From assembly GCA_043806975.1 (NCBI GenBank), contig JAZDGL010000018.1, forward strand, positions 1 to 37,747: DNA of 37,747 bases. The letters run 5' to 3'. Under the pieces are notes generated by a model. It did no database searches. It saw only the letters and a list, made by a program, of their open reading frames with translations, and was not told the origin of the DNA. The DNA comes from a bacterium (GTDB taxonomy: Bacteria; Patescibacteriota; Minisyncoccia; CAYZDR01). Positions within the stretch are counted from its first letter, which is position 1, and each line of letters starts with the position of its first letter. Of the stretch, positions 1-36,198 are shown one piece after another. The position numbers and the translations under genes were made by a program.

Positions 1-211
1 TTCTGAAACTTTTGAGATCTTGTTCTAGAATTTCATTGTTGTCGCAGAGGACAAGCCCTCTGCCGTTTTTGATTTGCTCCTTCGCCCAAAATGCGGCGAT
101 AATCGTTTTTCCCAGACCCGTTGCGATTGCCGCTAAAACCCGGGCTGACTTTGCAAAAGCCGCATTGATTAAACTCAAAAATTCTTTTTCGTAATCATAG
201 AGCTTTATCAT
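1..211 (-). CDS. SF2 (DEAD/DEAH, ResIII-like) helicase, N-terminal fragment; gene continues past the window start
   Basis: Reverse-strand ATG at 211-209, with AAGGAG (224-219) 7 nt upstream. Translation MIKLYDYEKEFLSLINAAFAKSARVLAAIATGLGKTIIAAFWAKEQ... carries a helicase motif I (ATGLGKT). Absent from the ORF track because it runs off the window. Confidence 0.55.
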   Translation of the reverse strand, partial: MIKLYDYEKEFLSLINAAFAKSARVLAAIATGLGKTIIAAFWAKEQIKNGRGLVLCDNNEILEQDLKSFR

Positions 212-474: not shown

Positions 475-635
475 TATAGCTCCCGCAAATAAATTTATTT
501 TAAAAACCCCCTTCATCCCCCCTTTCCAAGGGGGGAAATATCGGAATCCCTTTTCCGCCCAAGGCAGACCGCCTTGGGCGGTAATCTCCCTTTTCAAAGG
601 GAGAAAATATCGGAATTTGCTTTGCGGAAGCTATA
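475..635. repeat. Family-A modular palindromic element, copy 1 (complete, 161 bp)
   Basis: Terminal inverted repeats TATAGCTCCCGCAAATAAATT ... AATTTGCTTTGCGGAAGCTATA. The interior is made of short hairpin cassettes (CCCCCCTTTCCAAGGGGGG, CCGCCCAAGGCAGACCGCCTTGGGCGG, TCTCCCTTTTCAAAGGGAGA). Confidence 0.85.
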
Positions 636-6817: not shown

Positions 6818-6980
6818 TATAGCTCCCGCAAAATAAATTCTGATATTTTCCCCTTTAATAAGGGGGGATTGAAGGGGGGTTTTAATATTTTCTCCCTTTT
6901 AGAAGGGAGATTACCGCCCAAGGCGGTCTGCCTTGGGTAGAAGAGGGATTTTAAAATAAATTTGTTTTGCGGGAGCTATA
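6818..6980. repeat. Family-A modular palindromic element, copy 2 (complete, 163 bp)
   Basis: TATAGCTCCCGCAAAATAAATT ... AATTTGTTTTGCGGGAGCTATA. The cassettes are the same types as in copy 1 but in a different order. It ends 2 nt from the 3' end of tRNA-Glu. Confidence 0.9.
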
Positions 6981-9390: not shown

Positions 9391-9510
9391 TATAGCTCCC
9401 GCAAAACAAATTCTAATAATTTCTCCCTTTAAAAAGGGAGATTACTGCCCAAGGCGGTCTGCCTTGGGCAGAAGAGGGATTTTAAAATAAATTTGTTTTG
9501 CGGAAGCTAT
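9391..9510. repeat. Family-A modular palindromic element, copy 3 (complete, 120 bp)
   Basis: TATAGCTCCCGCAAAACAAATT ... AATTTGTTTTGCGGAAGCTAT. It starts 25 nt after the DsbA-like stop and ends 28 nt before tRNA-CAU. Confidence 0.9.
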
Positions 9511-9538
9511 GTGCGATAGAAATTGTTATTGATTTTTT

Positions 9539-10847: not shown

Positions 10848-11831
10848 ATGAATTTAATCCAAAAACTTAAAAAATCAGGGTTAAGAGGACGCGGCGGGGC
10901 AAGTTTTCCTGCTTGGCAAAAGTGGGAGGCAGTTAAAAGCGCTTCTAGCGAAACTAAATATGTGGTTTGCAATTTATCCGAAGGCGAGCCTGGCGTTTTT
11001 AAAGATAAATATATTTTAGAAAATTATTTGAAGATTTTGGTTGAAGGGATTGAGCTTGCGGTTAAAACGGTTGGCGCGGAACGGGCGTTTATTGCAATAA
11101 AAGATAGTTATTATGATAAATTTTTTTCTCAAATAATCAATCATATCGGCGGGCAGCCAATTGAAATTTTTAGGAAAGCAGGCGGGTATATTTCAGGAGA
11201 AGAAACGGCTTTGTTGGAAGCTATTGAGAATCGCAGAGTTGAGCCAAGGATAAAACCTCCTTATCCTGTTGACGAGGGGCTTTGGCGGTGTCCGACATTA
11301 GTAAATAACGCGGAAACCTTATTTGATGCGGCGTTGATTGCTCACGGAAAGTATAAGAATGAACGGCTGGTGTCAATTAGCGGAGATTGCAAAAATCCGG
11401 GCTGTTTTAGTTTTTCTGAAAATATAACAATTAAAAAAGCGCTGGAAAATTCGAGGAATTTGCTGGAAGATGATTTTTTTGTGCAAGCTGGCGGGGGAGC
11501 AAGTGGAATTGTATTAAATCGTGAACAGCTAGAATGTCCTTTGGTTGGAATGGGGGCGATTGTGGTTTATGACCGCAAAAAAACTAGGTTAGGCGATTTA
11601 GCCTTAAAGTGGGCGAGATTTTTTAGAGATGAAAGCTGCGGGAAATGCGTTCCGTGCAGAGAGGGAACATTCAGAATTTGTGAAATTTTTGAATCAAAAA
11701 ATCCTCGCTGGGATTTATTATTGGATATTTTTGAAAATTTGAAAAATTCATCTTTTTGCGCGATGGGAAATTTTGTCCCCGTTCCGTTTGAAAGTTTAAT
11801 AAAAAATGTTTTAAATAAAAAACAAGGTTAA
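10848..11831 (+). CDS. NuoF/HydB-like NAD(P)H-binding flavoprotein (FMN plus one 4Fe-4S), minimal 327-aa form
   Basis: GLRGRGGASFP, SGEETALLEAIE and ESCGKCVPCREG...SFCAMG motifs of the 51-kDa subunit family. Confidence 0.85.
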   Translation: MNLIQKLKKSGLRGRGGASFPAWQKWEAVKSASSETKYVVCNLSEGEPGVFKDKYILENYLKILVEGIELAVKTVGAERAFIAIKDSYYDKFFSQIINHIGGQPIEIFRKAGGYISGEETALLEAIENRRVEPRIKPPYPVDEGLWRCPTLVNNAETLFDAALIAHGKYKNERLVSISGDCKNPGCFSFSENITIKKALENSRNLLEDDFFVQAGGGASGIVLNREQLECPLVGMGAIVVYDRKKTRLGDLALKWARFFRDESCGKCVPCREGTFRICEIFESKNPRWDLLLDIFENLKNSSFCAMGNFVPVPFESLIKNVLNKKQG

Positions 11832-11847
11832 AGATTAGATTCGTAGG

Positions 11848-11867
11848 GGCGAACCTGTGTGTTCGCC
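11848..11867. repeat. short GC-rich hairpin in the nuoF-like/hydA spacer
   Basis: GGCGAAC-CTGTGT-GTTCGCC. The GTG start used by the ORF track (11857) lies inside it. Confidence 0.5.
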
Positions 11868-11907
11868 TGAAACTGCAAAAAAAACAATAAAAAAACCGTT
11901 AAAATAT

Positions 11908-13608
11908 ATGGAAATAACCATCAACAATAAAAAAATTAAATGCGAACAAGGCGAAACTATTTTAGATGTTGCAAAACGGGAGGGCATAATTATTCCTTCG
12001 CTGTGCCATCACCCAGACTTGCCCGTAAAAGCGAATTGCAGAATTTGCGTTGTTGAAATTGATGGTATGGAAAAATTGCAAACATCTTGTTCAACAAAAG
12101 TTAAAGATAAAATGATTATAAAAACAGATACAGATAAAGCTTTGAAGGCTAGAAAAATGAATTTAGAGCTGATTTTTGCGGAGCACATAGAAAAATGCCC
12201 CGATTGCATTTATAATGGGCGATGTAAAATTCAGGATTTGGCAGAACAGTATAAAATTAAAATTGACAGCCGTTTTCAAGACCGTAAAAGAGATCGCGCG
12301 ACATATAATTTTGGGAATGCTGTAAATTTAGATTTATCTAAATGTATTGATTGTCAAAATTGTGTTTCTGCCTGTGAAATGCAGCAAGCGAGATTTCTAG
12401 AAATGTCGGGAAAGGGGTATAAATCGCAGATTTCTCCTACGCAAGATAAAGAAAGAGATTGTATTTATTGCGGGCAGTGCGCCGCGCATTGTCCTGTTGG
12501 GGCGGCGCATGAAAATATGGAAGTAGAAAAAGTGGAGAAAGAAATTCGGGAGCTAGATCGGATTGTAATTGCTCAAATAGCGCCCGCTATTCGCGTTAGC
12601 ATAGGAGAGGAATTTGGGTTGGGCAATTTAGGGATTTCCACCGAACAACTTGCTTCTGCGATGAGAATTATTGGTTTTGATATTGTTTTTGACACCTCGG
12701 TTGCCGCTGATTTAACAACCATAGAAGAGGCTGACGAATTGATTGAACGGCTAGAAACGGGAGAAAACTTGCCAATGTTTACTTCGTGCTGTCCTGCGTG
12801 GGTTAAATATGTTGAATTTTATCATCCCGAGCTGATACCAAATTTAACCACAGTGAGGTCGCCGCAGATGATTTTAGGCGGTCTGGCAAAAACATATTTT
12901 GCTAAAATGAAAAAAATTGAGAGCGATGAGATATGCGTAGTTTCAATTATGCCTTGCACTGCCAAGAAATTTGAAGCTAAAAGGGAAGATTTGAAAATTG
13001 AAAATAAAATGTTTCCTGTGGATAATGTTCTGACCACGAGAGAATTGGGGTTTTTGCTGAAAAAATACGGGATAAATCCTAAAAAAGTTTCTCCCGAGCC
13101 GTTGGATAGTCCGTTAGGAGAGCCTAGCGGAGCGGGGATAATTTACGGCGCTGGCGGGGGAGTAATGCTTTCTGTCTTGAGAACGGCGTATTTTAAGCTT
13201 ACAGGGAAAGATTTTCCACTGGATCAGGGGTCTATTTTAAGAGGCGATAAGGGCTTGAAAACGGGGGAAATAAGAATAAATGGGCGAGACATAAAGTTCG
13301 CGGCGGCAAATGGAATGAGAAATGCAGCAATAATTTTAAACCAGCTGGAAACGAACCCGCGTAGTTATGACTATGTGGAAATTATGGCTTGCCCGGGAGG
13401 GTGCATCGGCGGAGGAGGACAGCCTGTTCCGACAAGCGAAGAAATTCGCGCGCGCCGCGCAGAGGCTTTGTTCCAGCTGGATCGCGCAAAGCCAATCCGT
13501 TTTGCGCATAAAAATCCACAAGTTTTACGAATTTATGAGGAATTTTTAATAGAAGAAGACGCAAAACACGATTTGATGTATACTAAATACAGGAGGAGGA
13601 AAAAGTAA
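11908..13608 (+). CDS. hydA: [FeFe]-hydrogenase catalytic subunit (M3-type: 2Fe-2S, His-ligated 4Fe-4S, 2x4Fe-4S, H-cluster)
   Basis: H-cluster signatures TSCCPAW, MPCTAKKFE and EIMACPGGCIGGGGQP, plus N-terminal ferredoxin-like Cys motifs. The ATG at 11908 gives MEITINNKKI... Confidence 0.93.
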   Translation: MEITINNKKIKCEQGETILDVAKREGIIIPSLCHHPDLPVKANCRICVVEIDGMEKLQTSCSTKVKDKMIIKTDTDKALKARKMNLELIFAEHIEKCPDCIYNGRCKIQDLAEQYKIKIDSRFQDRKRDRATYNFGNAVNLDLSKCIDCQNCVSACEMQQARFLEMSGKGYKSQISPTQDKERDCIYCGQCAAHCPVGAAHENMEVEKVEKEIRELDRIVIAQIAPAIRVSIGEEFGLGNLGISTEQLASAMRIIGFDIVFDTSVAADLTTIEEADELIERLETGENLPMFTSCCPAWVKYVEFYHPELIPNLTTVRSPQMILGGLAKTYFAKMKKIESDEICVVSIMPCTAKKFEAKREDLKIENKMFPVDNVLTTRELGFLLKKYGINPKKVSPEPLDSPLGEPSGAGIIYGAGGGVMLSVLRTAYFKLTGKDFPLDQGSILRGDKGLKTGEIRINGRDIKFAAANGMRNAAIILNQLETNPRSYDYVEIMACPGGCIGGGGQPVPTSEEIRARRAEALFQLDRAKPIRFAHKNPQVLRIYEEFLIEEDAKHDLMYTKYRRRKK

Positions 13609-13687: not shown

Positions 13688-13717
13688 TCCCCCTTTTTAA
13701 AGGGGGATGAAAGGGGG
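13688..13717 (+). promoter_or_regulatory. hairpin cassette supplying or sequestering the Shine-Dalgarno of the downstream gene
   Basis: TCCCCCTTT (13688-13696), AAAGGGGGA (13699-13707), AAAGGGGG (13710-13717), then ATG at 13723. Confidence 0.4.
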
Positions 13718-13722
13718 TTTTT

Positions 13723-16536: not shown

Positions 16537-16705
16537 TATAGTTTCCGTAAAACAAATTTATTTTAAAATCCCTCTTAGTCTCCCTTTTCAAAGGGAGAAA
16601 ATATCGGAATCCCTCTCAATCTTCCTTGCTGCGTCCCGCCAAAGTCCATGATGCGAAGGAGAATTAAGGGGGGAAAATATCGGAATTTGTTTTGCGGGAG
16701 CTATA
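16537..16705. repeat. Family-A modular palindromic element, copy 4 (complete, 169 bp)
   Basis: TATAGTTTCCGTAAAACAAATT ... AATTTGTTTTGCGGGAGCTATA. It contains the ~55-nt cassette (CTTGCTGCGTCCCGCCAAAGTCCATGATGCGAAGG) also present inverted at 30440-30500. It starts 10 nt after the stop codon. Confidence 0.9.
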
Positions 16706-19530: not shown

Positions 19531-20578
19531 CAAAAAGTATTATAAAGAAAAATACGAGCAAAATAAAAGTTATCTCAAACATCTTTTGATTTCTATTAAA
19601 AATCAAACTTATCCAAATTTGGAAATAATTATAATAGACGATTGTTCCGATGAAAACCCTTTTGAATTAGTTAAAACAATTTTACCGCAAGCTAAAATGA
19701 TAAGAAATGAAAAAAATTTGGGACTTTTGAAATCAGAAAATAAGGCGATAGAAATGTTTGGCGGAAAATACGCGGGCTTATTAAATCAGGATCTTTATTT
19801 AGAGGGAGATTATATAGAAAAATTGGTGGAAGTTTTAGAAAAAGATGAAAAAATTGGGGTTTGCGGAGGTAAAACTAGAACTTTTTTGTTAAACGAAAAG
19901 GGTGAACCGGAGTTTTCGCAATTGATAGATAGCGCAGGAATGTTGTTTTTTAAAGATCGCAATATAATTGAAGCGGGGAGAATGGAAGAGGATAATGGGC
20001 AGTATAATAAACAAAAGACAGTTTTTGGAATTACAGGGGCGGCTCCGCTTTTTAGGAAAGAAGCCCTTGAAGATATTAAAATTTTTGGAGAATATTTTGA
20101 TGAAGATTTTCAGATGTATAAAGATGATGTGGATTTGTGTTGGCGGATGAATTTACGAGGTTGGAAGTGCGAATATGCTCCGCAGGCGCTGGCGCATCAT
20201 GCTAGGACTTCTGCGGGAATTCCTAAAAAATACAGGAAAAATTTTTTATTGCGCCGTTTCGGATATATTATCCACAGGGTTGTTAAAAAGCAGTCGGGAG
20301 GCTCTGCAACGCGCCGCAGGGATGTAAGAAACCACTATTGGATGCTTGTAAAAAACGATACATGGCAAAGCTTGTTGAAATCTGCGCCTTTTTTTCTTTG
20401 GCGCGAGTTGCAAAAGCTGGTTTTTGGCATATTTTTTGAGCCTAATGTTTATTTTCCCGGCTGGGTGGACTTTTTCGGAAAATTAGGTAAAATGAAAGGG
20501 AAGAGAAAGATTATTCAGTCAAGACGGAAAATTATCTGGCAAGAGATGGAAAAGAGATTTGAAAAAGGGATATGGTAG
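19460..20578 (+). CDS. glycosyltransferase family 2
   Basis: ISLVSLAVMSFNS beta-1 strand and IIIIDDCSDE. It overlaps the upstream gene by 71 nt if the ATG at 19460 is used; the in-frame ATG at 19517 is an alternative start. Confidence 0.8.
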   Translation: MHQKELLGEQAISLVSLAVMSFNSKKYYKEKYEQNKSYLKHLLISIKNQTYPNLEIIIIDDCSDENPFELVKTILPQAKMIRNEKNLGLLKSENKAIEMFGGKYAGLLNQDLYLEGDYIEKLVEVLEKDEKIGVCGGKTRTFLLNEKGEPEFSQLIDSAGMLFFKDRNIIEAGRMEEDNGQYNKQKTVFGITGAAPLFRKEALEDIKIFGEYFDEDFQMYKDDVDLCWRMNLRGWKCEYAPQALAHHARTSAGIPKKYRKNFLLRRFGYIIHRVVKKQSGGSATRRRDVRNHYWMLVKNDTWQSLLKSAPFFLWRELQKLVFGIFFEPNVYFPGWVDFFGKLGKMKGKRKIIQSRRKIIWQEMEKRFEKGIW

Positions 20579-20669
20579 CTAATTAACAAAACAAATTCCG
20601 ATGTTTTCCCCCTTGGCAAGGGGGAATTGAAAGGGGTTTTGTGAATAAATTTGTTTTGCGGGAGCTATA
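20576..20669. repeat. Family-A element, copy 5 (left end degenerate, overlaps the stop codon)
   Basis: TAGCTAATTAACAAAACAAATTCC ... one CCCCCTTGGCAAGGGGG cassette ... AATTTGTTTTGCGGGAGCTATA. Confidence 0.75.
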
Positions 20670-24509: not shown

Positions 24510-24637
24510 TAGGACTTACGCGTTTGAGTGCAGTTCAAGGAAAATGCGAGGAGCGGAGCGAGGCGCACTTAATGGTGCGGCGAGCAAGCACCGCAGTATT
24601 TGACGAAGAAATGTGCCAAACGCGCAAGTCCTATAAA
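24510..24637. repeat. Family-D leader element, long copy (about 125 nt) with 17-bp terminal inverted repeat
   Basis: TAGGACTTACGCGTTTG (24510-24526) pairs with CAAACGCGCAAGTCCTA (24617-24633), with one mismatch. Internal GC-rich sub-hairpins are present. It ends in TATAAA, 16 nt before the pyrG ATG. Confidence 0.65.
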
Positions 24638-24653
24638 TGAAGAGTATAAATTT

Positions 24654-26378
24654 ATGAAATTTATTTTTGTTGCAGGCGGAGTGATGTCAGGAGTAGGGAA
24701 AGGCGTTGCGGCCGCATCTATTGCTAAAATTTTGCAAAGCAAAGGGTATAGCATAACATCTATTAAAATTGATCCTTATGTGAATGTGGATGCGGGGACA
24801 ATGAACCCTGTGGAGCATGGGGAGGTTTTTGTGACCCACGATGGAATGGAATGCGATATGGATATGGGAAATTATGAAAGGTTTTTAAACAAAAACATTT
24901 TGGCAACGAATTATATGACCACGGGGTCGGTTTATAAGGCTATCATAGATAAAGAAAGAAATTTGGAATATAAAGGAAAGTGCGTTTCGGTGGTGCCGAT
25001 GATCCCAGAAGAAGTTATCGCAAGAATAAAGCGGGCGGGAAAATTAGCGAAAGCGGATATGGTGGTTGTGGAAATTGGCGGGACGGTGGGTGAATATGAA
25101 AATATCTTGTTTTTGGAGGCAGCGCGGATGATGCGGCTGCGCGAACCGAAGGGGGTCGTTTTTATTTTAGTTAGTTTTTTGCCTATTCCAAGCAAAATTG
25201 GAGAGATGAAGACAAAGCCTACTCAGCATGCGGTTCGGACGCTAAATTCAGCTGGAATTCAGCCCGATTTTATTTTATGCCGCTCAACTAATCCGCTTGA
25301 TGAAAGAAGAAAAGAAAAAATTTCCATATTTTGTAATATGCTTAAAGATGATGTGATTTCTGCTCCTGATGTTGAATCTATTTACGATGTTCCTGTGAAT
25401 TTTGAAAAAGATGAGCTTGGAAAGAAAATTTTGAAAAAATTTGGAATGAAAGCGAAAAAAACAAATATGCAAAATTGGCGCGAAATGGCTGAAATAATGA
25501 AAAGCAGCAAAAAAGAAGTAAAAATTGGAATTGTTGGGAAGTATTTTAAGTCAGGAGATTTTGTTTTAAAAGATGCGTATGTTTCTGTGATTGAAGCAAT
25601 TAAGCACGCGGCATGGGTAAATAAGCGTAAGCCTATAATTGAGTGGGTGGACGCAGGAGAGTTTGAAGAAACACCTCTTTCTCCCCCTTTCGGAGGGGGA
25701 GGTAGGAGGAGTGGAAATTCTCTCCTCCTTGATAAGGGGGAGGTTAGGAGGGGGTCTTCTATAAATTGTCTAAAAAATTTTGATGCGATTATTGTTCCTG
25801 GCGGTTTTGGCGAAAGAGGGGTTGAGGGGAAAATTGCCGCGATAAAATATGCGCGAGAAAACAAAATTCCGTTTTTGGGGCTTTGTTTGGGAATGCAAAT
25901 GGCAGTGATAGAATTTGCTCGCAATGTCTGCGGATTATCTGGCGCGAATTCCACCGAAATTAATTCAAAAACAAAATATCCCGTGATAGATATTATTGAA
26001 GAGCAAAAAGAAAAAATGAAAAATAAAAATTATGGCGGGAGTATGCGCTTGGGGGCGTATAAATGCAGTTTAAAGTCGAATACAGAGGCGCTGAAAGCGT
26101 ATAAAATGACGGGGAGAATAATTAATGGTGAAAATGGTGAGAATTTGGTTGAAGAGCGCCATCGCCATAGATATGAGTTTAATAATGGTTTCAGACAGAA
26201 ACTGGAAGAAAAAGGGTTGATAATCTCGGGCATAAACCCGGAGCAGAATTTAGTGGAAATTATTGAGTTAAAGGATCACCCATTTTTTGTCGGGGTTCAA
26301 TTTCATCCAGAATTTTTGTCTCGTCCGTTAGATCCGCACCCGCTATTTAAAGAATTGATAAAAGCGGCGATAAAGTAA
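24654..26378 (+). CDS. pyrG: CTP synthase
   Basis: MKFIFVAGGVMSGVGKG start, and the GATase motifs PGGFGERG, GLCLGMQ and HRHRYE. The upstream TTG extension in the track is repeat-derived. Confidence 0.95.
   Translation: MKFIFVAGGVMSGVGKGVAAASIAKILQSKGYSITSIKIDPYVNVDAGTMNPVEHGEVFVTHDGMECDMDMGNYERFLNKNILATNYMTTGSVYKAIIDKERNLEYKGKCVSVVPMIPEEVIARIKRAGKLAKADMVVVEIGGTVGEYENILFLEAARMMRLREPKGVVFILVSFLPIPSKIGEMKTKPTQHAVRTLNSAGIQPDFILCRSTNPLDERRKEKISIFCNMLKDDVISAPDVESIYDVPVNFEKDELGKKILKKFGMKAKKTNMQNWREMAEIMKSSKKEVKIGIVGKYFKSGDFVLKDAYVSVIEAIKHAAWVNKRKPIIEWVDAGEFEETPLSPPFGGGGRRSGNSLLLDKGEVRRGSSINCLKNFDAIIVPGGFGERGVEGKIAAIKYARENKIPFLGLCLGMQMAVIEFARNVCGLSGANSTEINSKTKYPVIDIIEEQKEKMKNKNYGGSMRLGAYKCSLKSNTEALKAYKMTGRIINGENGENLVEERHRHRYEFNNGFRQKLEEKGLIISGINPEQNLVEIIELKDHPFFVGVQFHPEFLSRPLDPHPLFKELIKAAIK
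25674..25760 (+). repeat. two hairpin cassettes of the intergenic repeat system inserted in frame (87 nt, 29 codons) in pyrG
   Basis: 25719-25755 matches intergenic 27523-27559 at 35 of 37 positions. It encodes PLSPPFGGGGRRSGNSLLLDKGEVRRGSS, between the EFEE strand and LKNFDAIIVPGGFG. Confidence 0.85.
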
Positions 26379-26399: not shown

Positions 26400-26534
26400 T
26401 ATAGCTTCCGTAAAACAAATTCCGTTATTTTCTCCCTTTAAAAAGGGAGATTAAGAGGGATTTTGATGTTTTCCCCCTTAATAAGGGGGAATTGAAGGGG
26501 GTTTTGTAAATAAATTTGTTTTGCAAAAGCTATA
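26400..26534. repeat. Family-A modular palindromic element, copy 6 (complete, 135 bp)
   Basis: TATAGCTTCCGTAAAACAAATT ... AATTTGTTTTGCAAAAGCTATA, starting 22 nt after the pyrG stop. Confidence 0.9.
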
Positions 26535-26536
26535 AT

Positions 26537-26928: not shown

Positions 26929-26970
26929 TTCCCCCTTTGAAAAGGGGGATTGAGGGGGTTTTATCCCCCG
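26929..26970. repeat. hairpin cassette directly upstream of the rpmA start
   Basis: TTCCCCCTTTGAAAAGGGGGATTGAGGGGGTTTTATCCCCCG. On the rpmA strand the AAAGGGGGAAGAAAGAAG tract before the ATG can pair with TCCCCCTTTT. Confidence 0.7.
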
Positions 26971-27399: not shown

Positions 27400-27570
27400 T
27401 TTTTTTCCTCTCCCCCTTACTATGTTCTGCCGAAACACAATAGAGCAAAGGAGAATCAATAGAACGAAGGAGAATCAAGGGGTAGGGGGGGATTTTTTCC
27501 CTTTTCTGAGGGGGATTTTTTTTCTCTCCCCCTTGGTAAGGGGGAGGTTAGGAGGGGGTGCATTGGGGAA
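27400..27570. repeat. cluster of hairpin cassettes between convergent genes
   Basis: CCTCTCCCCCTTAC..., GGGGTAGGGGGGG, TCCCTTTTCTGAGGGGGA and TCTCTCCCCCTTGGTAAGGGGGAGGTTAGGAGGGGGT. Confidence 0.8.
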
Positions 27571-28764: not shown

Positions 28765-28792
28765 ATTATACAGCAAATTCTTGAAATTTCAA
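28765..28792 (-). promoter_or_regulatory. promoter for the nuclease gene, -10 only 6 nt from the ATG
   Basis: Reverse strand reads TTGAAA (28792-28787), 16 nt, TATAAT (28770-28765), ATCCTT, then ATG (28758). The -35 lies in the palindrome TTGAAATTTCAA (28781-28792). Confidence 0.5.
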
Positions 28793-28857
28793 AACTTTTT
28801 TATATGGAGGAAATTTGAGATTTTGTTAAACGGGATGTTTTTATTTTTCCTAAACTA

Positions 28858-28866
28858 TGCTAAAAT
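28858..28866 (+). promoter_or_regulatory. extended -10 element (TGcTAAAAT) 7 nt upstream of the NTase ATG
   Basis: TGCTAAAAT at 28858-28866, ATG at 28874, no SD. Confidence 0.4.
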
Positions 28867-28873
28867 AAAACTA

Positions 28874-29185
28874 ATGAGATTAGAAAAATACAGCGAAGAA
28901 AAATTAAAAAAGCAGATTTTGGAAATAGCGAGTAAACATTTAGATTTAAGCCAATACAAGGTGTTCTTTTTTGGTTCAAGGGTCTTCGGAGGAGGAAGCG
29001 ACCGTTCTGACATTGATCTTGGAATAGAAGGGAAGAATCCTGTTCCAATCAGAGAATTTGAAAATATTAAGGAGGAAATTGAGGAAATTCCGATTTTGTA
29101 TAAAGTTGAACTGGTGGATTTTAAAAAAGTTTCTCCGGAATTTTATAATTTTGCAAAAAAATCTATTGAAATAATTAATCCGTAA
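28874..29185 (+). CDS. mntA: minimal nucleotidyltransferase (MNT), antitoxin of a HEPN/MNT type VII toxin-antitoxin pair
   Basis: FFFGSRVFGGGSDRSDIDLGIEG (GSx10-12DxD motif); 103 aa from the ATG at 28874. Confidence 0.85.
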   Translation: MRLEKYSEEKLKKQILEIASKHLDLSQYKVFFFGSRVFGGGSDRSDIDLGIEGKNPVPIREFENIKEEIEEIPILYKVELVDFKKVSPEFYNFAKKSIEIINP

Positions 29186-29196
29186 AACATAAAAAA

Positions 29197-29586
29197 ATGG
29201 GAAAAAGCAAATTTTCATTATTATTATCGCAATTTAAAAAAGCCGTTTTGCGGCTGGATGAAGTCTTGAAGCAAGAAAAAAATGATTTTATGAGAGATTC
29301 TGCCATTCAAAGGTTTGAATTTACTTTTGATTTGGCATGGAAAGCGGTTAAGGCTTATTTGGAAGAAGAAAGAGGTGTTATTTGCAATTCTCCCAAAGGT
29401 TGTTTTCGCGATGCTTATCAGCAAAAAATTATTGAAAACGATGAATTTTGGCTGGAAATTACGGATGCTCGCGATAGAACCTCGCATACTTATGAAGAAA
29501 TAACAGCAGAAGAAGTTTATCAAACCTTGCCTAAGTCGTTGGAATATTTCAAAAAACTATTAGAAAAATTACAAGATAATTCATAG
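29197..29586 (+). CDS. hepT: HEPN-domain protein, HI0074-family nucleotidyltransferase substrate-binding protein (toxin)
   Basis: RDSAIQRFEFTFDLAWKAVKAYL and the Rx4H motif RDRTSHTY. It starts 11 nt after the MNT gene. Confidence 0.85.
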   Translation: MGKSKFSLLLSQFKKAVLRLDEVLKQEKNDFMRDSAIQRFEFTFDLAWKAVKAYLEEERGVICNSPKGCFRDAYQQKIIENDEFWLEITDARDRTSHTYEEITAEEVYQTLPKSLEYFKKLLEKLQDNS

Positions 29587-30323: not shown

Positions 30324-30545
30324 CTGCCCTTATTTGTCATTCCGACCGAGCTCTGCCTGTATTCAGGCGGAGGCGAGTGGAGGGATCCCTTAAATAATAT
30401 AGTTGCCGCAAAAAAAATTCCGATGTTTTCTCCCTTTGGCCATCCTTCGTCCTATGGGCTTTGGCGGGACGCGGCAAGAAAGACTGAGAGGGATTCCGAT
30501 GTTTTCTCCCTTTTTAAAGGGAGATTAAGAGGGATTTTAAAATAT
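30324..30545. repeat. composite of a Family-B unit plus a Family-A element (copy 7, right terminus missing)
   Basis: 30324-30436 is the reverse complement of 596-706, at roughly 105 of 113 positions by eye. The left TIR is TATAGTTGCCGCAAAAAAAATT at 30398. Confidence 0.85.
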
Positions 30546-32138: not shown

Positions 32139-32245
32139 CCCCCTCTTAATCTCCCCCTTGTAAAAGGGGAGAGGATTAGAAAATAATCCCGAACTATTTT
32201 AAAAAGAGGGAAAATTTGATGACTTGTTTTGCGGCAAAAGTGTAT
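32139..32245. repeat. degenerate Family-A remnant
   Basis: CCCTCTTAATCTCCCCCTTGTAAAAGGGGAGAGGATTAG cassette plus a right-TIR-like TTGTTTTGCGGCAAAAG. No left TIR is present. Confidence 0.55.
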
Positions 32246-34534: not shown

Positions 34535-36078
34535 AATAAAATTTTTAATTTTTGTATCCCCTCCCCAATTCTTTCAATCGATTTATCTTTTCCTAATACC
34601 CATGCAACCTCAAAGGGAGTTGGCGACTTATCTGCTCCTGTGAGGGCATAGCGCATTGGCCAAAGCATATTTCCCTTGCCTGCTTTTTCTGCTTTCGGAG
34701 TAATTTTTGCTTCTAAATTTTCTTTCGTCCAATCGTTTTCGGGGATTTCGGATAAAATATCTTGGATTGTTTCTAGATTTTTTATGGTCTCTTCTTTGTT
34801 AGATTTTTTCCAAATAAGTTTTTCCGCCGAATAATCAATTTTATCAAATAAAAAGAAATCAATATTTTCCGTAATATCTGAAAGTTTTTTAATCCGTTCC
34901 CGTTCTATGGAAACGATTTTTTTGATATATTCTTTATCTGAAATTTTTTCAATAAATTTTTGACATTGCCTACCGGCAGGCAGGTTTTTGATCCCTCGGA
35001 TTAACTCGGGACAAGCTTTTGTTTTTTGATTTTCTATAAATGGCGCGCATCTTTCTGCTAGTTCTTCTAAATCCATTTTCTTAATATACTGCCCATTAAA
35101 CCAATCTAGTTTTTCGTAGCTGAAAATTGGCGCGGCTTTATTCACCTTGGATAAATCAAAATTTTCAATTAGTTCTTCTTTTGAAAATATCTCTTGTTCG
35201 GTTTTTGGGTTCCATCCCAAAAAAGCGATATAATTTATAATCGCTTCTGGCAAATACCCTTGTTCTTGAAAATCGGAAACTTTTGTGCTGCCGTGCCGCT
35301 TGGATAGTTTTTTCTTATCCGAACCCAAAATAACTGGCAGATGCGCGTATTGAGGCGCTTCCCAGCCAAACGCTTCAAATAAAGCGAGATGCTTTGGCGC
35401 GCTAGCAATCCATTCTTCTCCGCGAACAATATGGGTAGTTTTCATTAAATAATCGTCAACTATATGAGCAAAGTGATATGTTGGATAGCCATCAGATTTC
35501 AGTAAAACGGGATCGTCAATCAATTTTCCGTCAAATTCTATTTTGCCATAAACAATGTCTTCCAAAATATATTTTTTATCAGGCATTTTAAATCGGATTA
35601 CAAAAGGCTGCCCGTCTTCAATTTTCTTTTTGGCTTCTTCCGAAGATAATTTTAAGCAGGCGCGATCATACATTGGCGCTTGTTTGTTTTTTTCTTGCTC
35701 TTTTCGCAAATCTTCAAGCCGTTCAGGCGAGCAAAAACAATAATAAGCTATTCCCTTTTCAATAAGTTCATTTGTGTATTTTTTGTAAATATCTAGCCGT
35801 TTGCTTTGGATATATGGGCCAAAATCCCCTTTTTCTTTTCCATTTTTATCAATTACGCCTTCATCCCAATTTATTCCAATCCATTTTAAACTTTCAATTA
35901 TTGCTTCTAGCCCTTCTGGATCAAATCTTTGTTGGTCGGTGTCTTCAATTCTTAGAAAAAATTCCCCCTTATTTTTATGCGCAAAAAGCCACGCAAAAAG
36001 CGCGGTGCGAACGCCGCCGATATGCATTTTTCCTGTTGGCGATGGAGCGAAACGAGTTCTGACCATATTTTTTGTCAT
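34531..36078 (-). CDS. gltX: glutamate--tRNA ligase
   Basis: RFAPSPTGKMHIGGVRTALF (HIGH motif) and KLSKRHG (KMSKS motif). The first ATG (36078) lies inside a REP unit; the ATG at 36066 is an alternative start. Confidence 0.93.
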   Translation of the reverse strand: MTKNMVRTRFAPSPTGKMHIGGVRTALFAWLFAHKNKGEFFLRIEDTDQQRFDPEGLEAIIESLKWIGINWDEGVIDKNGKEKGDFGPYIQSKRLDIYKKYTNELIEKGIAYYCFCSPERLEDLRKEQEKNKQAPMYDRACLKLSSEEAKKKIEDGQPFVIRFKMPDKKYILEDIVYGKIEFDGKLIDDPVLLKSDGYPTYHFAHIVDDYLMKTTHIVRGEEWIASAPKHLALFEAFGWEAPQYAHLPVILGSDKKKLSKRHGSTKVSDFQEQGYLPEAIINYIAFLGWNPKTEQEIFSKEELIENFDLSKVNKAAPIFSYEKLDWFNGQYIKKMDLEELAERCAPFIENQKTKACPELIRGIKNLPAGRQCQKFIEKISDKEYIKKIVSIERERIKKLSDITENIDFFLFDKIDYSAEKLIWKKSNKEETIKNLETIQDILSEIPENDWTKENLEAKITPKAEKAGKGNMLWPMRYALTGADKSPTPFEVAWVLGKDKSIERIGEGIQKLKILL

Positions 36079-36198
36079 TCCGAACGGAACGGAGTGGAGT
36101 GAGGAATCTCTTCAAAAATATTAGCAATGATCAAATATAAATTTTGAAAATACTATTAAAGAGATCCCCCTCTCCCCTTCGGGTCGTTCGGGATGACA
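36074..36198. repeat. Family-B REP-like inverted pair spanning the WecG-like/gltX junction
   Basis: GTCATTCCGAACGGAACGGAGTGGAGTGAGGAATCTCTTC (36074-36113) and AAGAGATCCCCCTCTCCCCTTCGGGTCGTTCGGGATGACAG (36158-36198). Confidence 0.75.

Follow-up and report, generated by a model that had tools for sequence, protein, structure and literature searches.

An apparent in-frame insertion of tandem triplex-motif repeats in the CTP synthase gene of a Patescibacteria genome

Two groups of described repeats come closest to the sequences reported here. The first is the class of bacterial intrastrand triplex motifs (BoxC/PIT/TM) described by Holder et al. 2015 (NAR 43:10126, PMC4666352), who cite Bachellier and Hoyne/Maher; published work on this class deals with intergenic locations only (PMC4666352). 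Triplex folding has been shown in vitro for an oligonucleotide of the E. coli element TMECO and was undetected in duplex DNA or in vivo, published tests of PIT elements found neither terminator nor promoter activity, and the E. coli relatives have no link to known mobile elements (PMC4666352). The second group comprises repeats located in frame within genes, including RPE (Ogata 2000 and others), and is reviewed in Delihas 2011 (PMC3184786); Delihas 2007 (PMC2759123) treats RU/ERIC-type elements, not BoxC. The Coxiella MITEs also include repeats fused in frame into genes (PMC5896051).

We analyzed a 37,747 nt stretch of Patescibacteria DNA (the window, taken at its full length) in which the CTP synthase gene pyrG has an in-frame insert (Table 1). 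The explanation we favor, and consider very probable, is that a tandem pair of ~40-nt interspersed repeats was copied into the pyrG frame and is translated as a disordered loop of 26–29 residues. What is new is the translated, in-frame copy of a triplex motif; in-frame repeat insertion as a phenomenon is already known. We found no description of in-frame copies of the triplex-motif class in the searchable literature, and literature searches with the unit and peptide sequences as strings returned nothing relevant.

Table 1. Features of pyrG, its insert and the repeat family, in window coordinates. Y, pyrimidine; R, purine.
Feature	Position	Strand	Details
pyrG (CTP synthase), 574 aa	24654..26378	+	start ATG 24654
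Codons for G335-E338 (GEFE)	25656..25667	+	insert starts directly afterwards
In-frame insert, 29 codons, residues 341-369	25674..25760	+	PLSPPFGGGGRRSGNSLLLDKGEVRRGSS; 87 nt, stop-free
Cassette 1, decayed class II triplex-motif unit	25677..25714	+	finder: 7-nt blocks, ≤1 mismatch
Cassette 1 Y block	25681-25688		CTCCCCCT
Cassette 1 loop	25689-25693		TTCGG
Cassette 1 R block	25694-25701		AGGGGGAG
Cassette 1 spacer	25702-25704		GTA
Cassette 1 mirror block	25705-25712		GGAGGAGT; 2 mismatches to perfect mirror over 8 nt
Cassette 2, well-preserved class II triplex-motif unit	25718..25755	+	
Cassette 2 Y block	25722-25730		CTCCTCCTT; one T opposite G
Cassette 2 loop	25731-25733		GAT
Cassette 2 R block	25734-25743		AAGGGGGAG(G)
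Cassette 2 spacer	25744-25746		TTA
Cassette 2 mirror block	25747-25754		GGAGGGGG
GLCLGMQ motif, glutaminase nucleophile Cys411	25878..25898	+	intact, downstream of insert
HRHRYE motif, residues 503-508	26160..26177	+	intact
HPE motif	26304..26312		intact
MITE-like composite element just past pyrG stop	26400..26535	+	terminal inverted repeats TATAGCTTCCGTAAAACAAATT, AATTTGTTTTGCAAAAGCTATA
Tandem triplex-motif unit in composite element	26431-26460		
Tandem triplex-motif unit in composite element	26471-26501		
Triplex-motif unit upstream of rpmA (L27)	26930..26959	+	
Intergenic twin of cassette 2	27522..27559	+	TTCTCTCCCCCTTGGTAAGGGGGAGGTTAGGAGGGGGT
Intergenic family member	13688..13718	+	
Other formal member	507-536	-	
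Other formal member	16569-16598	-	
Other formal member	20606-20636	+	
Other formal member	30505-30534	+	
Other formal member	32139-32171	-	
Looser or nested-hairpin members	near 545-604 (-), 6849-6880 (+), 6891-6948 (+), 9422-9479 (+)		

Cassette 2 has a stem (CTCCTCCTT/AAGGGGGAG) with 8/9 pairs plus one T opposite G, and a mirror (GGGGGAGG-TTA-GGAGGGGG) that matches at 8/8 positions. It is identical to its intergenic twin at 36 of 38 positions, with a chance expectation of 0 (100 dinucleotide-preserving shuffles); the match of 35/37 positions (25719-25755) reported in a first-pass annotation is this same match with one base trimmed. Cassette 1 has a perfect 8 bp stem (CTCCCCCT/AGGGGGAG) and, although its mirror holds at only 6/8 positions over 8 nt, it still passes the rule of 7 nt with no more than one mismatch. 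Its decay takes the form of indels in both loops and two mismatches in the third block, and its loop resembles those of two copies in the nearest relative (locus L001), one at 19556 and one in PriA (TTTCGG vs TTTACGG). Neither cassette is identical to another copy in the window, cassette 2 differing at 2 positions and cassette 1 being unique. The first-pass annotation had described positions 25674-25760 as a stop-free, 29-codon insert within the CTP synthase reading frame, made of two cassettes of a repeat system and placing a strong hairpin in the mRNA, and this description stands: both cassettes pass a formal triplex-motif finder, and RNA of the segment 25660-25775 folds at -51.6 kcal/mol (z = -3.06), with 0 of 200 shuffles folding as well. 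A canonical G-quadruplex in the insert was rejected because there are only three runs of G3 or longer.

On their sequence, both cassettes have the anatomy of class II purine-motif intrastrand triplex motifs (BoxC/PIT/TM; PMC4666352). The class is defined by a Watson-Crick hairpin (stem 6–15 nt, loop 1–6 nt, no more than one mismatch) in which a pyrimidine block pairs with a purine block, and by a further purine block, the mirror of that one, beyond a short second loop (TTA in 'type A'); both cassettes conform to this definition. The units share with the described class the block order, the 3–6 nt loop, the 3-nt TTA second loop, G/C-rich 7–9 nt stems that tolerate one mismatch, a large number of nearly identical copies in a genome, tandem or inverted pairs in some cases, and the absence of any transposase association. 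There are three departures from TMECO. First, the window stem is CTCCCCC / GGGGGAG / GAGGGGG whereas that of TMECO is CCCTCNCCC / GGGNGAGGG, and the pattern CCCTCNCCC-N3-6-GGGNGAGGG-N3-GGGNGAGGG has no match on either strand of the window; read in this way, the window units are a sequence subfamily distinct from TMECO. Second, there are 12 formal copies in 38 kb of low-GC Patescibacteria DNA, compared with 23 in the E. coli MG1655 chromosome (PMC4666352). Third, TMECO is 'always located intergenically' in E. coli (PMC4666352), whereas the pyrG copy lies in the coding frame of a conserved enzyme.

The insert also resembles an RPE, in that a member of a multi-copy, interspersed palindromic family lies in frame in an intact, conserved gene whose orthologues do not have it, its placement on the protein surface is compatible with function, and other family members are intergenic. 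However, RPEs are ~105–146 bp and restricted to Rickettsia, whereas the window units measure 38–41 nt, have the three-block design of triplex motifs and have relatives across many phyla; no sequence relationship is expected, the comparison being one of architecture and size. As the units are this short and the host is not Rickettsia, they are RPE-like in behavior but are not RPEs. A third comparison is with MITEs and BIME mosaics, because the intergenic copies sit inside mosaic elements of ~120–170 nt with 22-nt terminal inverted repeats. The pyrG insert itself does not have the TATAGCTCCCGCAAAACAAATT-type ends that bound these mosaics, nor a recognizable flanking target duplication, and was rejected as a MITE on these grounds. 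No REP-type GTAG/CGTC tag was noticed on reading the units, and there is no transposase or RAYT-type protein among the 30 ORFs of the window.

Each unit consists, in order, of a pyrimidine block, a short loop, a reverse-complement purine block, a TTA or GTA spacer, and a mirror purine block. The finder identifies 12 such units in the window compared with none in each of 30 shuffles, and they fall into three subtypes that co-vary so as to keep the mirror (AGGGAGA-TTA-AGAGGGA, GGGGGAGG-TTA-GGAGGGGG and GGGGGAGA-TTA-AGAGGGGG). The two tandem units in the composite element next to pyrG are spaced ~41 nt apart, the same as in the pyrG insert. The unit upstream of rpmA is retained at the orthologous L001 site (11969-11998) with differences confined to the hairpin loop, at a PyrG identity between the two genomes of only 81%. 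Unlike the intergenic copies, the pyrG cassettes have no T-rich flanks. Only one of the 12 repeat-bearing sites is coding, in a window that is ~81% coding (binomial P about 1e-7), a sign of selection against coding insertions of the units. At gathering thresholds Rfam matches only two tRNAs in the window, and only tRNAs at 16 motif-carrying loci from other phyla, so the unit is not a described RNA family. Two other readings of the units were rejected. One is an intrinsic terminator, as a terminator scan calls none of the units and returns just two loose matches beside units, at 26954 and 27496. The other is a hairpin between the first and third blocks, which fits the CCCCC subtype only; the TCTCCC and CTCCCCC subtypes have a mirror, not a reverse complement. 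The outer stem of proteobacterial versions (CCCCAT...ATGGGG, formed by the third block and a distant C-rich block) has no counterpart in the window.

By alignment, the pyrG segment is an insertion that the orthologues lack. The repeat-derived core is 25677-25755 (79 nt), although the exact boundaries of the insert cannot be fixed, and the net excess in length of the window PyrG is 26 codons relative to most relatives and 21 relative to the nearest. None of 61 distinct homologues (62–81% identity) has residues in the insert columns in two alignments, and there is no counterpart in solved CTP synthase structures. In the alignment with Thermus thermophilus CTPS there is a jump from query 346 / chain 353 to query 374 / chain 354, and in that with the E. 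coli enzyme (1s1m) E338 corresponds to E334 and I370 to V338, so that 31 window residues stand for E. coli T335-R336-G337. The nine closest homologues are 530–544 aa, compared with 574 aa for the window protein. The syntenic L001 orthologue does not have the insert in a DNA alignment, which also reveals no precursor sequence at the site; its protein has five extra residues in the same connection, and two other homologues (P0109 and P0114) have insertions there that are unrelated to the window insert. The 90% identity cluster of the window PyrG has one member, from one contig, and an exact protein look-up in public assemblies returned no record. A metagenome scan for sister contigs using the mosaic terminal inverted repeat gave only three short, unrelated hits.

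Related units are nonetheless found in other genomes, and some of these are also in frame. A HMMER search of 1.84 billion representative proteins with the 33-residue insert peptide gave no hits; as this query is too short and low in complexity, recurrence is seen at the DNA level. At least 120 stretches, from a wide spread of phyla, contain the 21-mer core of the pyrG unit, and the motif as such is present also in isolate assemblies. Among units in low-GC loci, about 8% fall within long ORFs, and at least ten conserved proteins have them in frame. One example is PriA of the nearest relative, with the in-frame unit YPLLTSPSVKGRN. Others are an IleS-like protein (Falkowbacteria) and a ThrC-like ORF (Patescibacteria), with identities judged from sequence, AtpG (Saccharibacteria), and UvrA, [FeFe]-hydrogenase (HydA), PepN, HsdM and HrpA, with identities confirmed by Pfam. 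In UvrA and HydA the unit-encoded peptides fall in gaps against solved structures. Only the four stop-free reading frames of the unit are used.

In the AF2 model the insert is a low-confidence loop (pLDDT < 50) between strand 326-333 / helix 334-337 and helix 370-375 / strand 378-381. It is rich in Gly, Arg, Pro and Ser, and is predicted to be disordered and on the enzyme surface, with a native fold elsewhere. Residues 334-337 form a short GATase helix in the model, and as E338 aligns with E. coli E334, the insert falls exactly where the counterpart of E. coli helix 330-336 ends; this E. coli helix is one of two filament contacts of E. coli CTP synthase (PMC4126345). The published tetramer contacts are in the amido-ligase domain (PMC8641951). 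The first-pass annotation had placed the insert in a surface loop, with a position away from the tetramer and filament interfaces as something to be confirmed; the surface position and the distance from tetramer contacts, and also from the active sites, are borne out, whereas separation from the filament interfaces is not, given the equivalence to E. coli 330-336. The helical insert of the eukaryotic glutaminase domain, which has the filament histidine H355 (human) or H360 (yeast) (PMC8641951), is likewise specific to its lineage and occupies the beta2-beta3 connection of CTP synthase too, and window L373 aligns with human residue 361. That insert illustrates that the site accepts extra residues and faces neighboring tetramers (PMC8641951). 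However, it is a folded, conserved helix for filament assembly, whereas the window insert is repeat-derived, predicted to be disordered, and seen in one contig. As the insert prolongs the end of the helix that E. coli uses for filament contacts, we infer that polymerization through this contact is probably changed or abolished, if the window enzyme polymerizes at all.

This location raises the question of whether the loop has gained a function. It could block or re-tune filament assembly, provide a new interaction surface, or act through the mRNA, with the hairpin and Shine-Dalgarno-like GGAGG runs slowing translation or stabilizing the message. In favor are the coincidence of the site with the E. 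coli filament-contact helix and with the connection of the eukaryotic filament insert, the strong RNA structure, and the retention of the rpmA-upstream unit between these diverged genomes, from which it follows that some family members, and perhaps also the pyrG copy, may have functions. However, the insert is a singleton that none of the 61 aligned relatives shares, disorder is predicted for it, and cassette 1 is already decaying. Moreover, the units enter many unrelated proteins in any open frame, which resembles neutral sampling. We therefore regard exaptation of the loop as unlikely. The first-pass annotation had left open whether the insertion is tolerated or exapted, and the first is the better supported, the insert being a singleton that shows no conservation. 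That annotation's description of pyrG as essential is an assumption for this organism.

An assembly artefact, in which a repeat was mis-joined into pyrG at shared k-mers, could be suspected given that the contig contains many copies of the unit and is the sole record of the window PyrG. However, both flanks are the same gene in the same frame, the insert is stop-free with a length that is a multiple of three, no other window copy is identical to either cassette, and the T-rich flanks that accompany intergenic copies are not present. Independent assemblies of other organisms show the same type of in-frame event, and isolates carry the motif as such. We consider a mis-join very unlikely.

It is more improbable still that the insertion has killed pyrG and that the ORF is intact in appearance only. 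The addition of ~27 residues might disrupt a conserved domain, and CPR bacteria often depend on salvage, but the gene looks functional and under purifying selection by comparison with its homologues and by structural modeling. The ORF, for which a mechanical call starts earlier at TTG 24600, has no stops or frameshifts across 574 codons, and dN/dS is 0.053 relative to the nearest, syntenic orthologue. Its product matches T. thermophilus CTPS (E = 1.5e-151) and has the two domains of a CTP synthase, an N-terminal synthase domain (Pfam CTP_synth_N, residues 2-264, E = 1e-104) and a class I glutamine amidotransferase domain (GATase, residues 305-570, E = 3e-39) with a Cys-His-Glu triad, of which C411, H551 and E553 are invariant in the homologue alignments. 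All family-invariant columns are retained in two such alignments. The AF2 model has a mean pLDDT of 85.6, falling below 50 only at residues 341-366 and 47-49, and Foldseek superposes it on solved CTP synthases with target-normalized TM-scores of 0.90–0.94; the insert is in a length-variable connection and loops out of an otherwise native fold. Thus the first-pass view that this is not a pseudogene, and that the GLCLGMQ and HRHRYE motifs on both sides of the insert are intact, agrees with our data, and the HPE motif is also present. An antisense ORF at 25382-25954 (190 aa) arises mechanically from the stop-poor repeat and pyrG codon bias, and is unsupported as a gene.

There is little to commend the idea that the segment is absent from the mature product, through removal from RNA or protein or ribosomal bypass: a very stable hairpin in a coding sequence recalls the bypass element of phage T4 gene 60, but there is no in-frame stop or pair of take-off and landing codons, 87 nt is far below intron or intein size, intein motifs are absent, Rfam identifies only two tRNAs in the window, and a segment destined for removal would have no need of the open frame that is seen here. 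Equally negligible is a local origin by slippage or duplication of pyrG's own sequence, with a chance or compositional likeness to the repeats; the insert is low-complexity and G- and C-rich and its peptide has no significant protein match, but the match to 27522-27559 is not expected by chance, the three-block architecture and TTA spacer are common to 10 other window units and the L001 copies, and the relatives have neither a precursor nor a graded series of shorter forms at the site.

Returning to copying of a tandem repeat pair into the pyrG frame, a plausible course of events is as follows. The single-stranded DNA hairpin of a unit would take its third block into the major groove, with an in vitro precedent in the E. 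coli relative, whereas as RNA the unit would form hairpins only. The family has expanded in this Patescibacteria lineage, and nearly always in intergenic DNA, most likely by structure-dependent, templated copy-and-paste during replication or repair with no dedicated transposase. Since triplex folding is known only in vitro for TMECO, a role for it in unit movement is conjecture, and we note that the pyrG insert has no target-site duplication and that the relatives compared provide no close-range pair of empty and filled sites. Three circumstances may have enabled the pyrG copy to survive: it landed in the variable beta2-beta3 connection of the glutaminase domain, its length is a multiple of three, and it is read in one of the 4/6 frames of the unit that are stop-free (...KGEVRRG...). 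With the enzyme core unchanged and pyrG under purifying selection, we see the insert most probably as a passenger that is tolerated, not as an adaptation. A bolder and more doubtful proposal, which we offer only tentatively, is that triplex units of ~40 nt are a very small pan-bacterial class of mobile DNA, copied via their single-stranded fold (e.g. by template switching or gap repair at stalled forks) and regularly seeding new disordered loops in essential, conserved proteins; the pyrG insert would then be one visible survivor, remodeling the surface for filament regulation.

Copying of the repeat pair into pyrG would represent a natural experiment in insertion tolerance, in which a conserved enzyme takes ~27 extra residues at a defined surface site, the very one where the E. 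coli and eukaryotic enzymes make filament contacts, and in a highly reduced CPR genome with a very dense load of triplex-motif repeats. It joins two literatures, that of intrastrand triplex repeats, reported as intergenic, and that of in-frame insertions such as RPE. If also true across phyla (PriA, IleS, AtpG, UvrA, HydA and others), units of ~40 nt would be a general source of new protein loops, and they would be an annotation hazard in metagenome-assembled genomes, giving rise to spurious 'low-complexity' inserts or small ORFs (...KGEVRRG..., ...PLLTSPL...).

The CTP synthase gene pyrG lies in a contig of 36.5% G+C whose predicted proteins have their nearest matches among Patescibacteria (CPR) proteins, and it carries a segment made of units that are otherwise all intergenic in the window. 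The second cassette (25718–25755) matches intergenic positions 27522–27559 with two mismatches in 38, in keeping with the first-pass annotation, and dinucleotide-preserving shuffles gave no comparable match. Also as described there, the reading frame is preserved through the insert, and the GLCLGMQ and HRHRYE motifs around it are intact, as is the His-Pro-Glu of the triad.

When aligned, the units in the window follow one constant plan of five parts, in the order of a pyrimidine block (TCTCCCTT, TCCCCCTT or CTCCCCCTT), a loop of 3–5 nt, the reverse-complement purine block, a TTA or TTG spacer, and a second purine block. This last block mirrors the first purine block rather than repeating it in direct or inverted orientation, and the relation co-varies across the subtypes (AGGGAGA-TTA-AGAGGGA, GGGGGAGG-TTA-GGAGGGGG and GGGGGAGA-TTA-AGAGGGGG). 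Judged by its sequence, the architecture is that of the published class II purine-motif intrastrand triplex motif, known first from the BoxC repeats of E. coli, later redescribed as PIT elements and covered under the name 'TM' in the survey of Holder et al. (2015; PMC4666352). A finder built on the published rules (7-nt blocks, at most one mismatch per pairing, loops of 3–7 and 2–6 nt) returns 12 units in the window and none in 30 shuffles. Both pyrG cassettes are among the 12, as expected if the insert consists of two cassettes of the window repeat system; cassette 2 is nearly perfect, and cassette 1 is decayed, with a GTA spacer, two mismatches in the third block, and a hairpin loop like that of the copies in L001, the contig of the nearest relative. 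The E. coli TM consensus (CCCTCNCCC-N3-6-GGGNGAGGG-N3-GGGNGAGGG, with TTA ('type A') or CCG as second loop; PMC4666352) has no match in the window, and since the class architecture is present, these units form a new sequence subfamily, distinct from that of E. coli, within the structural class. There are 23 copies of the motif in E. coli MG1655, 'always located intergenically', tied to local genomic instability and with no link to known mobile elements; the E. coli oligonucleotide folds in vitro into a stable triplex, and neither duplex DNA nor in vivo footprinting revealed one (PMC4666352). The purine motif is impossible in RNA, and PIT elements showed neither promoter nor terminator activity (PMC4666352).

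The pyrG segment originates from this repeat family and was inserted in frame into an otherwise conserved gene. The closest PyrG homologues in a search among 5.8 billion proteins are 530–544 aa long, and none of 61 distinct homologues in two alignments (62–81% identity) has residues in the insert columns; the 29-aa loop that had been read as an insertion is thus absent from all of them. Nearest among them is P0002, 81% identical across the aligned positions and encoded on L001, a syntenic 122-kb contig with the gene order L9, pyrG, L27, a small ORF, a PD-(D/E)XK nuclease and onwards, and in the DNA alignment with its pyrG the flanks are identical and the repeat is absent from the insert site. 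The alignment to the Thermus thermophilus enzyme stops at query residue 346 (chain 353) and restarts at query 374 (chain 354). Against E. coli, E338 aligns with E334 and I370 with V338, and therefore 31 window residues stand in place of T335-R336-G337. The beta2-beta3 connection has 12–17 residues in relatives versus 38 in the window protein, an excess of 21–26 codons, and the boundaries of the insert are only approximate.

The gene is alive, in line with the earlier proposal that it is no pseudogene. Compared with L001 pyrG, dN/dS is 0.053 over 542 aligned codons (with dS saturated, at ~2.3), the frame is free of stops and frameshifts, and every family-invariant column is kept. An AlphaFold2 model built from 62 sequences has a mean pLDDT of 85.6, with values below 50 only at residues 47–49 and 341–366, and gives target-normalised TM-scores of 0.90–0.94 with solved CTP synthases in Foldseek. 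The modelled fold is intact, and the insert is predicted to be a disordered loop, looped out between strand 326–333/helix 334–337 and helix 370–375/strand 378–381.

The position of the insert may also bear on filament formation. Helix 334–337 of the model, which the insert directly follows, covers residues aligned to E. coli 332–334, and the E. coli helix 330–336 makes one of that enzyme's two filament contacts (PMC4126345). The filament histidine of eukaryotes (H355 in human, H360 in yeast) sits on a helical insert in this region that is specific to their lineage (PMC8641951), and since L373 aligns with human residue 361, H355 lies within the same beta2-beta3 connection. The homologues P0109 and P0114 have unrelated insertions in this connection, and in L001 pyrG it is five residues longer than in other relatives and includes a small perfect palindrome (GCGCAAAATCTTGCGC, 11034–11049), which may be a further hairpin-type insertion into this connection. 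The site is surface-exposed and permissive. The suggestion of a surface loop away from the filament interfaces thus stands for its exposure and fails for its distance from them; if the enzyme polymerises, the insert would probably perturb E. coli-type filament contacts.

A strong hairpin in the pyrG mRNA, also put forward in the first-pass annotation, agrees with the predicted fold. Sense RNA of 25660–25775 has a predicted folding energy of −51.6 kcal/mol (z = −3.06; 0 of 200 shuffles as stable), both cassettes pairing to form one long nested stem, and a DNA fold of the antisense strand stands out less (−17.8 kcal/mol, z = −2.12). An antisense ORF of 190 aa (25382–25954, −) crosses the insert (…LLTSPLSRRREFPLLLPPPPKGGERG…) because the repeat is free of stops on that strand also, and antisense ORFs through stop-free repeats are a likely origin of spurious 'hypothetical proteins'.

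Features of pyrG and its insert, of repeats in the window, and of in-frame units in other genomes (mosaics hold one or two units each)
Feature	Location	Strand	Remarks
pyrG ORF, CTP synthase	24600–26378	+	574 aa if the start is ATG 24654
Insert	25674–25760		87 nt, 29 codons; open in frame; reads PLSPPFGGGGRRSGNSLLLDKGEVRRGSS
Repeat-derived DNA within pyrG	25677–25755
MITE-like mosaic	475–640	−
MITE-like mosaic	6818–6980
MITE-like mosaic	9391–9512
MITE-like mosaic	16537–16705	−
MITE-like mosaic	20576–20669
MITE-like mosaic	26400–26535
MITE-like mosaic	30398–30544
Third repeat family	595–705	−	~110 nt; 94% alike to next
Third repeat family	30328–30438	+	~110 nt
Third repeat family, shorter copy	36074–36112	+	this and next overlap ends of GltX-like and WecG-like genes
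Third repeat family, shorter copy	36160–36197	−
Unit in PriA ORF (20475→), in frame	L001 20702–20734	−	same subtype as in pyrG; VVFDIT[YPLLTSPSVKGRN]LRSIKK
Inverted pair in ThrC-like ORF, in frame	L069 (Patescibacteria SO_2017_GW1_125) 111–199		TTA and CCA second loops; identified from sequence
Unit in IleS-like protein, in frame	Falkowbacteria genome		identified from sequence motifs
Unit in AtpG, in frame	Saccharibacteria genome

Only one of the 12 unit-bearing sites is coding, in a window that is ~81% coding (P ~1e-7 under random placement), and coding insertions are therefore strongly selected against, or avoided. Units often occur as tandem pairs ~41 nt apart, a spacing equal to that in pyrG, and most intergenic ones are inside mosaics of ~120–170 nt with 22-nt inverted-repeat ends (TATAGCTCCCGCAAAACAAATT ... 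AATTTGTTTTGCGGGAGCTATA), which had only three matches in a public metagenome scan. Three units (552–581, 6911–6940 and 9442–9471) have a perfect GC hairpin of 27 nt (CCGCCCAAGGCGGTCTGCCTTGGGCGG) nested precisely within their second loop, between the purine blocks, so that repeats have inserted into repeats. Units are sparser in L001 (4 in 21.6 kb). The window unit at 26930–26959 is orthologous to L001 11969–11998, upstream of rpmA (L27), with only the hairpin loop differing, which hints that some copies are maintained, and a unit is 3′ of the pyrG stop in both; the family is therefore older than the split of lineages with 81%-identical PyrG. Another L001 unit (19556–19588) overlaps the 3′ end of a WecG-like gene. 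Nine of the formal units are on the + strand and three on the − strand, too few (n = 12) to read a replication or transcription bias from them; the purine-rich strand of most units is the + strand, the G-rich strand and the coding strand of most genes, and GC skew is positive up to ~33 kb. The third repeat family, framed as TGTCATYCCGA...(hairpin)...GGRATC, apparently encodes the WecG-like C-terminus ...PNDPKGRGGSL. Elsewhere in the window, a nucleotidyltransferase (Polbeta/NTP_transf_2) gene adjoins a HepT-like/NTase_sub_bind gene (28781–29586) in what looks like an MNT-HepT toxin-antitoxin module.

A 21-mer of the unit (AAGGGGGAGRTTARGAGGGGG) is in at least 120 stretches, at 127 or more sites, among genomes representing each GTDB species. 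Hosts among the matches listed include Cellvibrio, Geobacter and relatives, Betaproteobacteria, Prevotella, Chthonomonadaceae, Planctomycetes, Dehalococcoidia, Acidimicrobiia and several CPR groups, cultured isolates included; nearly all sites listed have a matching pyrimidine block before the 21-mer, and at gathering thresholds no Rfam family covers the unit in 16 of these loci. These loci were picked by motif, and frequencies in this biased sample are indicative only. At least 15 of the sites listed are within long open frames, and in loci below 50% G+C long ORFs hold 9 of 107 units (motif-selected matches, indicative), the nine including those tabulated for PriA and for the ThrC-like, IleS-like and AtpG proteins. 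Pfam-confirmed proteins with a unit in frame are UvrA, [FeFe]-hydrogenase, ATP synthase gamma, HrpA, aminopeptidase N and HsdM, and for UvrA and the hydrogenase the repeat-encoded peptides are exactly at alignment gaps with solved structures. The window's own [FeFe]-hydrogenase large subunit (Fe_hyd_lg_C, E = 1e-87), which adjoins a Nuo51-like flavoprotein (10848–13608), has no repeat insert, whereas that of locus L076 has one. The inverted pair of L069 recalls the type A and type B inverted pairs of E. coli BoxC. Only four stop-free frames were seen among the matches listed, KGEVRRG and RGRLGGG in sense and PPPNLPL and PLLTSPL in antisense, one frame per strand being blocked by TAG or TAA; this is the usage expected from neutral sampling and subsequent selection. 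Proteobacterial units (e.g. L035, L052, L064, L081, L082 and L089) have ATGGGG... after them and often ...CCCCATCCCC and a second hairpin (CCCTCCCCTTGAAGGGGAGGGA) before them, an arrangement that points to a larger composite closed by an outer stem; peptides that it encodes in frame include PLKGRE...SSPFKGEVRRGMG. In-frame insertion of the unit is recurrent, coding sequence of the window is depleted of it, and it carries the potential for an mRNA hairpin.

The pyrG insert is probably translated, and tolerated rather than useful, as it is a singleton on one contig, cassette 1 is decaying and frame usage looks neutral. The units may spread by structure-dependent templated copying in replication or repair, without a transposase, since the window encodes no transposase or RAYT-like protein, there is no published link to mobile elements, hairpins are nested in loops, and the pyrG copy is without terminal repeats. 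The pyrG element is neither an RPE nor a MITE, and probably no REP either, its units as read showing no GTAG or CGTC tag. The event works like the RPE insertions of Rickettsia and other in-frame fusions of repeats and genes (PMC3184786). In the searchable literature, itself incomplete, we found no published description of triplex-motif units in coding sequence, or of interspersed repeats in CPR genomes. The insert is of interest because it falls on the filament interface, and because it is one case of what looks like widespread, undescribed behaviour of very small repeats.
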